From a virus (Duplodnaviria > Heunggongvirae > Uroviricota > Caudoviricetes), in the IMG/VR virus record IMGVR_UViG_2526164665_000018: DNA of 12,481 nt, one strand, 5' to 3'. The position numbers and the translations under genes were made by a program. The notes beneath the pieces were generated by a model. That model searched no databases. It was given only the letters and a program-made list of their open reading frames with translations, and was not told the DNA's origin. Shown piece after piece: positions 8,309 through 9,660 of this stretch; position 1 is the first letter of the stretch; each line of letters starts with the position of its first letter.

Positions 8309-9271
8309 TCAGTTAAAAAAGAAGGTGATTGCTCCATTTATAAATGAATAGTCATCCCCTGTCTTGAATTCTGATGTTACTTTATTAAATGCTAGTGTGA
8401 AGGCTACAGGTGCATACCCAATTGTTGCGCCAACTTGATATTCATCAACAGTTTTGTTTAGCGATACTGTTGTTTGTTTCGTCTGTATTGTTTTTCCTTC
8501 GAGAGTATAGTTGCGATTGACATCTCGTCTTTCCATACCTGCAAAAATCTTGTATTTGAATCCGCTTGTATCGGACATATGCATTAAACCACGGGGAGCC
8601 AGCAGACCAAAGCCATTATCCGAATTGAAGGTTTTATCATTACCAATGGCAATGGTTGCGCCATATGCTACATATTGAAATAAGTTTCCAGTAACAGCAG
8701 AAACTTCAGGGTATAATCCAACATTAGCACCTAAAATATCCATACTTGGTGTCATGGATAGCATCCCTTTTACAGTATAACCGTAGCGATTCTCTATTTG
8801 ATCATCCCATGCATGATATTTTTCTGCCCCAATAATCTCATGAGCTTTATTTTGTACTTTCTGACCGCCTGCGTCGGGGCCAACAACACCTATGTCAGTA
8901 CCTAATCGATAGCGAATCCAGTCATTCGCAAGGGAGTTCCATTCAATACCAGTGTGAGTGTATGCACTAAAAGCTCTGTCTCCAGTTACAGCTGTGTTGT
9001 GTCTTTTATTACTGCCTGATGGAGAGTAAATATCTTGCGCAATATGGAGAGATAATTGGCTCGAGTCTGAGATATCGTGGCTATATCCCAGAAATAAGCC
9101 TTGTGAGTAATCATCTCTGTTTTCATGTTTATTGCCATAAATATCATTAAGTATTGGTTGAAACTTCCCTGCATCATCATTTGCTAATGATAATGCAAGG
9201 CTGTTCGCGATAGCTGAACACGTGGTAAATGACAGAGCAATAAAGACGCCAGCGATGACACTTTTTTTCAT
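8309..9271 (-). CDS. lpxR: Outer-membrane lipid A 3'-O-deacylase, LpxR-like; prophage moron
   Basis: 320-aa ORF with an N-terminal signal peptide (MKKSVIAGVFIALSFTTCSAIA) and C-terminal aromatic residues (...ITFFFN). Matches my recollection of the LpxR family, which has a known prophage-encoded O157 orthologue. Opposite strand and lower GC than the phage backbone. Confidence 0.7.
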   Translation of the reverse strand: MKKSVIAGVFIALSFTTCSAIANSLALSLANDDAGKFQPILNDIYGNKHENRDDYSQGLFLGYSHDISDSSQLSLHIAQDIYSPSGSNKRHNTAVTGDRAFSAYTHTGIEWNSLANDWIRYRLGTDIGVVGPDAGGQKVQNKAHEIIGAEKYHAWDDQIENRYGYTVKGMLSMTPSMDILGANVGLYPEVSAVTGNLFQYVAYGATIAIGNDKTFNSDNGFGLLAPRGLMHMSDTSGFKYKIFAGMERRDVNRNYTLEGKTIQTKQTTVSLNKTVDEYQVGATIGYAPVAFTLAFNKVTSEFKTGDDYSFINGAITFFFN

Positions 9272-9660
9272 ATGTTATTGTCTTCCTTTTTTTGAATGGT
9301 GCGCGTATTTTACATACATGAGTTTGTAATACAAGGTGCGTAATCAATATGATGTTTTATAATTGCGTGAGACAATTGATTTATTCGTTTTTTATTGCGG
9401 TTTTTATTATCTTTTAATGTAACGGTGTTTTTATTAAGTGTGTTTGCGTGGTGTTTTATGTTTTTTATAATTTTTATTTTATTAAATTTAAAAGCATTAG
9501 TAATGGCTATTCTATATAGCAATATAAGAACTGTTACAAAAAAAGGGGGGGCAATTACAGGTAGTTATGGATGATGAGTGAAACAGATATTGGAGAACCG
9601 GGGAATGAATGATGTCTGAGTCTTATATATCAGAACTCCTTCGCTGTCGCTGGGGGCTCC
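9272..9660. promoter_or_regulatory. AT-rich divergent intergenic region upstream of lpxR-like and the Q-like gene; contains an A7G7 homopolymer pair
   Basis: Very AT-rich with repeated GTTTTTATT-like motifs (9390..9480), typical of curved, H-NS-silenced DNA. A7 at 9538..9544 abuts G7 at 9545..9551. No specific -35/-10 assigned. Confidence 0.4.

Follow-up and report, generated by a model that had tools for sequence, protein, structure and literature searches.

Why does the regulatory region of a phage hold, on the opposite strand, a gene for an outer-membrane enzyme that acts on the surface of the host bacterium, and whose programme does this gene follow? The question is raised by lpxR, a gene found in a window of 12,481 nucleotides, i.e., the whole stretch of DNA that was analysed (IMG/VR record IMGVR_UViG_2526164665_000018). 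The answer that is very probably right is that lpxR is a virulence-regulated cargo gene in a lambdoid prophage, held silent, most likely by H-NS, until the regulators Pch and Ler switch it on. Family membership, active-site conservation, cassette boundaries, composition, and distribution were obtained in the present analysis. The enzyme activity in enterohaemorrhagic Escherichia coli (EHEC), the immune attenuation, and the dependence on Pch/Ler were taken from the literature. H-NS as the silencer of the window copy is inferred, as are the precise site of the promoter and the function of a hairpin 3' of the gene.

In the proposed mechanism, lpxR is carried by the lambdoid prophage in an AT-rich cargo unit that is complete in itself. 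The cassette is inserted in reverse where the nin region meets the late regulator Q, and the gene would stay outside the control of the phage programme. Its AT-rich 5' region would hold it silent, most likely through H-NS. Horizontally acquired Pch together with Ler would turn it on alongside the type III secretion genes of LEE (locus of enterocyte effacement). The action of LpxR would then give under-acylated lipopolysaccharide (LPS) and a weaker stimulation of Toll-like receptor 4 (TLR4).

The gene product was assigned by Pfam domain search to one family only, i.e., LpxR (PF09982, E 4.5e-40). The score was 138 bits against a cut-off of 26, and the match ran near end-to-end, with protein residues 10-319 placed on profile positions 2-321 of 323. 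Among all PDB sequences, the sole match was 3FID, the lipid A 3'-O-deacylase LpxR of Salmonella Typhimurium (E 3.6e-153). Residues 24-319 were aligned to residues 2-296 of chain A with one 1-residue gap, so that the alignment to the mature chain begins at residue 24 of the window protein. The identity was 74.3% (220/296) in an alignment that covers the whole mature chain, i.e., the 12-stranded barrel. A typical Sec signal peptide, recognized by eye from the sequence, was found at the N-terminus (MKKSVIAGVFIALSFTTCSAIA followed by NS, with an AxA site). The active-site and Ca2+ residues important for binding and catalysis in the Salmonella enzyme are N9, D10, T34, Q118, H122, and E128 (PMC6863877, citing Rutten 2009). 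In the window protein these are N31, D32, S56, Q140, H144, and E150, and all six positions are kept. S56 is a conservative Thr to Ser change relative to T34 of Salmonella, and the same change was reported earlier for the EHEC protein (PMC6863877). An earlier reading of this DNA, made from the sequence only, had called the gene LpxR-like; the Pfam score, the identity to 3FID, and the kept active site bear this out, and neither a better-fitting family nor a loss of active-site residues was found. The gene is therefore placed in the LpxR family, and a lipid A 3'-O-deacylase activity is predicted for this copy. By NCBIfam scan, no family was given for LpxR, Q, or the downstream membrane open reading frame (ORF), and NinH had two weak matches far below the cut-offs.

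The locus is the known lpxR of EHEC and enteropathogenic E. coli (EPEC). Over the 1,560 bp from ninH to Q, the identity was 99.9% to loci that carry the LpxR annotation in O26:H11 11368, O103 RM8385, and many other strains, and matches at the same level were also found among O111, O145, and O157 genomes. At an identity of at least 99%, lpxR was present in 620 of 5,426 complete E. coli genomes, always chromosomal and always as a single copy. The whole window was a 99.9% match to several bovine and human isolates. In IMG/VR, 55 viral contigs hold lpxR, two of which belong to a second lineage with 71% amino acid identity. The copy of O157:H7 is Z0955/ECs0814, located in prophage CP-933K/Sp3, O-island 36 (PMC3891560, PMC4699771). 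It is essentially the same locus as in the window, and its flanks and AT-rich 5' region are shared too. The two differ in the length of two homopolymers (at 8314 and 9286, both probably artefactual) and in how far the prophage around the gene has decayed, that of the window holding two IS3-family copies. Gene, function, prophage location, and Pch/Ler control had all been published before.

The gene is flanked on both sides by phage genes on the + strand, whereas lpxR lies on the - strand just upstream of the late regulator. The gene order is rusA-ninH-Q stub-lpxR(-)-ylcG-Q, which agrees with the earlier claim of a gene on the opposite strand within the phage regulatory region, i.e., between ninH (+) and ylcG/Q (+). 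In lambda and many lambda-like phages, the homology was confined to window positions 8102-8168, with 97% identity to the start of lambda Q. Both RefSeq and the record of phage 434 list this Q stub as a partial antitermination protein. No lambda-type homology extends beyond 8168, and similarity to phage 82 (rus 3' end-orf45-Q) picks up at about 9595-9600, within the 13 nt that close rus. Phage 82 itself has orf45 (ylcG) and Q right behind rus. Because the lambda-type homology ends at 8168 and the 82-type homology begins at about 9600, the lpxR-specific DNA is 8169-9599. The sequence-only reading had given the locus an extent of 8309-9660; the gene itself stands as described there, but the far end reaches about 50 nt into ylcG, the intergenic region being 9272-9608 and the cassette ending at about 9599.

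The cassette is compositionally foreign. Its GC content is 35.8%, versus 48.8% in the left flank, 45.6% in the right flank, and 46.9% in the whole window, and the 3' flank of lpxR has 27.1% GC. The sharp GC change, the opposite orientation, and the defined mosaic boundaries support the assignment of the lpxR unit as a phage moron, as had been proposed earlier. An 8-bp tandem duplication (ATTTTATT ATTTTATT) was observed at 8195-8210 in the 3' flank; the window and O26 both have it, and phage 434 has the single-copy form.

The published work places lpxR under virulence control. Z0955 was activated 5-fold by Ler in a microarray, and the regulation of ECs0814 by Ler had been seen before (PMC3891560). 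By transcriptomics, lpxR was assigned to the LEE/Ler modulon, outside the Shiga toxin (Stx)/Q prophage modulon (PMC9263587). According to the summaries of Ogawa 2018 given in PMC6393859, PMC6863877, and PMC7649339, both Pch and Ler are needed for the activation of lpxR. Thus the earlier proposal of control by virulence regulators rather than by the phage is upheld by the literature (PMC3891560, PMC9263587, and, in summary form, PMC6393859). In yhaO/yhaJ mutants, and likewise in adherent cells, the expression of lpxR falls with that of LEE (PMC7649339, PMC4699771), and among E. coli strains the presence of the gene is strongly linked to that of LEE (PMC6724679). As for function, 3'-O-deacylase activity and lowered phagocytosis are ascribed to EHEC LpxR in the summary of Ogawa 2018 in PMC6393859. 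An lpxR mutant of strain Sakai provoked stronger inflammatory and phagocytic responses, for which the authors held a rise in TLR4-mediated NF-kB and p38 signalling responsible, and LpxR was proposed as a conserved vaccine antigen (PMC6863877). In Salmonella, genome-wide data point to repression of lpxR by H-NS, and HilD, the master regulator of T3SS-1 (a type III secretion system), activates it (PMC5122947).

The 5' region of lpxR was described in the earlier reading as very AT-rich, and this was confirmed: the GC content is 28.7% over 9272-9599 and 27% over 9300-9560, and 9272-9608 is the AT-densest stretch of the whole window. The reiterated GTTTTTATT-like motifs claimed for it were found as well. 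Two exact copies of GTTTTTATT, at 9400 and 9427, form a 10-nt direct repeat 27 nt apart on the + strand, and two copies with one mismatch are at 9388 and 9470 on the same strand. In shuffles of the AT-rich region alone, with dinucleotides preserved, the count was reached in 0.15% for exact copies and in about 1% for copies with at most one mismatch. The repeat is real but small, only modestly above what composition gives, and there is no array. The T-tracts are spaced by 13, 11, 16, 26, 7, 10, and 6 nt, which is not clearly helical phasing, and for this reason no curvature is claimed. A 59-aa, TTG-initiated, very hydrophobic ORF lies within this region at 9395-9574 (+); none of the records examined annotates it, and it probably arises merely from the T-richness of that strand.

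It is reasonable to consider silencing of the E. coli copy by H-NS likely, because the 5' region has 29% GC, Ler is an antagonist of H-NS, and genome-wide data point to repression of the Salmonella lpxR by H-NS. Several observations weigh against the model. For the high-affinity consensus of H-NS, TCGATAAATT, no site with at most two mismatches was found in 9272-9608. In the literature searched, with the full text of Ogawa 2018 outside it, no statement of H-NS binding at the E. coli lpxR promoter was found. The sigma-70 scan upstream of lpxR gave 9/12 matches at most, not above shuffles; one such weak match is at 9537-9509 on the - strand. Since these hexamers are weak and no commoner than in shuffles, no promoter was assigned. 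The 3' hairpin has no U-tract on the lpxR strand. Finally, the window protein ends in FFFN, not in the terminal Phe typical of outer-membrane barrels. Apart from these points, ECs0813-0815 are not listed in the text supplements of the Pch/H-NS chromatin immunoprecipitation paper (PMC4764244).

The FFFN end gives rise to an improbable rival explanation, namely that the window allele is hypomorphic or dead. The extra Asn after the C-terminal Phe would lead to poor barrel assembly via the beta-signal of the beta-barrel assembly machinery (BAM), and thus to less deacylation of lipid A. A C-terminal aromatic residue is required for the assembly of outer-membrane proteins, and the FFFN end, if real, could impair BAM-dependent assembly. 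The change comes from a single-base deletion at 8314 (A7 to A6), by which the C-terminus ...ITFFF (319 aa), found in 616 of the 620 genomes, becomes ...ITFFFN (320 aa). The other 4 complete genomes, whose origins are unrelated, share the variant, as do 2 IMG/VR contigs. Within the lpxR region, only this deletion and a second one at 9286 (T8 to T7, just upstream of the Shine-Dalgarno sequence) separate the window from O26 11368, and the second was found in none of the genomes over the full query. In comparison with the closest complete genome, CP075006, the window has four length differences, i.e., 8314, 9286, 10499, and 10807. All four are single-base losses in A/T homopolymers, which is the classic pattern of sequencer under-calling, and the loss at 10807 breaks a neighbouring 744-nt membrane-protein ORF into 10604-10879 and 10876-11361. 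Because all four are losses of this kind, the homopolymer deletions, including the one behind the FFFN end, are probably a sequencing artefact. Phase variation at the two homopolymers was also considered; it was not preferred, since every one of the four indels in the 12.5-kb window is a loss from a homopolymer.

It is still less probable, indeed very unlikely, that lpxR is mainly under the phage programme. By this explanation, antisense transcription from PR, antiterminated by N and running towards Q, would govern the gene, which would act as an element of phage fitness or lysis timing. The arrangement gives it some ground, since lpxR is antisense between the PR-side nin genes and Q, so that Q expression needs read-through, and since the viable phage 434 keeps the cassette intact. 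Just upstream of the 3' end of lpxR there is also a hairpin that, read on the + strand, has a U-tract. As + strand RNA, this hairpin had a folding energy of -16.4 kcal/mol (z -2.6) and is followed by UUUAUGUUUUUGUU; as - strand RNA, i.e., on the lpxR strand, it had -19.1 kcal/mol (z -6.2). It is unchanged in O26 and phage 434. It may mark where the lpxR mRNA ends, insulate against phage transcription running rightward, or do both. However, the transcriptomic data cited above put lpxR in the LEE/Ler modulon and not with Stx/Q. The prophage, moreover, is lambda-like and decayed, i.e., defective, since the first of its two insertion sequence (IS) copies truncates cII and the replication gene O carries a frameshift, yet the cassette is kept at 99% or more in the 620 genomes.

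That the protein is a porin-like homologue of SfpA (systemic factor protein A) with a non-enzymatic role, as the term 'SfpA-like' used for ECs0814/Z0955 in older annotations and papers would imply, can be set aside as extremely unlikely, given the full-length 74% identity to a crystallised deacylase with kept catalytic residues, the deacylase activity reported for the EHEC protein in the above summary (PMC6393859), and the place of Yersinia SfpA within the LpxR family, which makes this a matter of naming and not of a separate function.

Table 1. Positions of lpxR, its cassette, and neighbouring features in the window.
Feature	Position	Strand	Description
KilAC/Rha antirepressor	6545-7267	+	neighbour
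YbcO	7267-7557	+	neighbour
RusA	7554-7916	+	neighbour
NinH	7913-8101	+	neighbour
Lambda-type Q 5' stub	8098-8168	+	71 nt; first ~20 codons (MRLESVAKFHSPKSPMMSDS...); overlaps ninH stop; left cassette scar
lpxR cargo cassette	8169-9599		1,431 bp; 35.8% GC; DNA confined to lpxR-bearing elements
Stem-loop	8227-8269		inverted repeat 40-80 nt downstream of lpxR stop; likely 3' end or terminator element
lpxR coding sequence	8309-9271	-	open reading frame of 320 aa here; consensus allele 319 aa, 8312-9271 equivalent; RefSeq WP_000750155.1 'lipid A deacylase LpxR family protein'
A6 run	8314-8319		T-run on coding strand; one base shorter than in 616/620 genomes
Signal peptide coding part	9206-9271	-	MKKSVIAGVFIALSFTTCSAIA then NS; AxA cleavage motif (AIA before N), by inspection
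Shine-Dalgarno-like AGGAAG	9282-9287	-	10 nt upstream of ATG; A7 run before (A8 in other genomes)
AT-rich divergent intergenic region	9272-9608		~29% GC, lpxR to ylcG; presumed lpxR promoter and presumed Ler/Pch/H-NS target
Cluster of GTTTTTATT-like motifs and T-tracts	9388-9478	+	copies at 9388, 9400, 9427, 9470
ylcG-family small ORF	9609-9731	+	40 aa; first gene of 82-type late-regulator module; homologous to phage 82 orf45
Phage-82-type antiterminator Q	9746-10435	+	229 aa; PF06323, E 1.7e-91

In the record of phage 434, a ribosome binding site (RBS) is annotated at the place equivalent to the Shine-Dalgarno-like AGGAAG (Table 1). Just downstream of Q, a promoter-like TTGCAA-17-TATACT was found at 10419-10447 (+), followed by a canonical intrinsic terminator at 10481-10502 with a T-run. 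Such a PR'-tR' pair is what one would expect as the target of an 82-type Q. Two identical IS3-family elements are placed in inverted orientation at 46-1259 (+) and 4909-6122 (-), enclosing 3.6 kb with cII-O-P-ren-ninB-ninE. The segment between these inverted copies could flip via homologous recombination. Each copy holds an ALIL frameshift pseudoknot (Rfam RF01497, 121.5 bits); these two were the only hits of the Rfam scan of the window, and none was found in the lpxR region.

Another layer of control may come from the host. The small RNA (sRNA) MicF represses the lpxR of Salmonella via sites in the RBS and the coding sequence (PMC4651636). Because one of these sites is in the coding sequence, lpxR of EHEC may share this control. 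The sequence of MicF was confirmed in the genome of an E. coli strain with a 99.9% match to the whole window. On the - strand at about 9167-9181, i.e., codons 31-35, AAATGATGATGCAGG can pair with the 5' end of MicF by complementarity, and the stretch of codons 31-34 (AAAUGAUGAUGC) gave an 11-bp helix with this end at -13 kcal/mol. Codons 31-35 (AAAUGAUGAUGCAGG) are identical in three lpxR lineages that share about 72% DNA identity overall, including four synonymous positions. The same stretch encodes the catalytic Asn-Asp, so the protein sequence itself constrains its conservation. In a duplex search over the whole mRNA, the best MicF-lpxR pairing had -17.1 kcal/mol, no better than with shuffled seeds (p = 0.34), and at the RBS of E. 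coli lpxR there was no pairing (-4.4). It is therefore only tentatively suggested that the prophage lpxR is also under envelope-stress sRNA control by a MicF site in the coding sequence, layered on Pch/Ler. More speculatively, in 434 and other viable phages the convergence of lpxR with transcription from PR to Q may tie its expression to late-gene timing.

The cassette and its gene were compared with related systems. Phage 434 (OL657226; 3997-5623) carries the same cassette at 99.2% identity, with the Q stub, the hairpin, and a ylcG/Q82-like neighbour. Unlike the prophage of the window, it is viable, its nin genes are intact (ninG and ninI in place of rusA-ninH), and it has one copy of ATTTTATT. 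No mention of LpxR in phage 434 was found in the searchable literature.

The lpxR of Salmonella is chromosomal and is not known to be carried by a prophage. Its product (STM1328; PDB 3FID) shares with that of the window 74% amino acid identity of the mature protein and the active site, with T34 being Ser here. Both belong to the Ca2+-dependent 3'-O-deacylase family, and both genes have low GC content. Like the E. coli copy, the Salmonella gene is co-regulated with a type III secretion system; its activator is HilD, which is thought to counter H-NS, whereas that of the E. coli copy is Pch/Ler.

Lambdoid morons, e.g., lambda bor/lom and the cargo of Stx phages, are also similar to lpxR. Like these, lpxR is an autonomous host-interaction gene of deviant composition, placed between phage modules and followed by a stem-loop, and the literature (PMC3891560, PMC9263587) supports its expression from the lysogen independently of the lytic genes. 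Unlike morons that are clean insertions, lpxR sits at a mosaic junction between the lambda-Q stub and the end of an 82-type rusA. It also differs from lambdoid morons in being antisense to the transcript bound for Q and in having a terminator that is non-canonical on its own strand.

A second phage-associated lpxR lineage (71% aa identity) was found in two IMG/VR contigs, L057 (835-1794) and L058. There, the gene adjoins IS remnants, a glycosyltransferase-like gene, and tail-fibre and tail-fibre-assembly genes, and it is not at the ninH-Q junction. This different cargo site suggests independent capture by phages. In Citrobacter sp. ANG330, a chromosomal lpxR with 73% amino acid identity (contig L003, 5995-6960) has a phytase-like gene on one side and phoP/phoQ on the other, with no phage genes nearby. 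It was the one relative outside E. coli in a protein-pattern scan of genome contigs, in which the 8-mer patterns are too strict to show a wider distribution. The coding sequence has 39-40% GC in the window, Citrobacter (39%), and L057 lineages. The upstream DNA is below the locus average in all three, i.e., 32% in the window, 32% in Citrobacter, and 38% in L057, where the locus has 44%. Between these lineages, nucleotide homology is limited to the part encoding the mature protein, and therefore the signal peptide and the regulatory DNA differ from one lineage to another.

The window adds nothing new on the biology of LpxR, which was known in gene, function, location, and control. What is added here is the exact boundaries of the cassette together with its two recombination scars, the presence of this lpxR cassette in phage 434, a second lpxR lineage at another phage cargo site, and the caution that the FFFN end is probably due to a homopolymer error. 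For the bacterium, the meaning of the gene is that, through LpxR, attaching-and-effacing E. coli can make its LPS less endotoxic when it deploys type III secretion, as has already been published.

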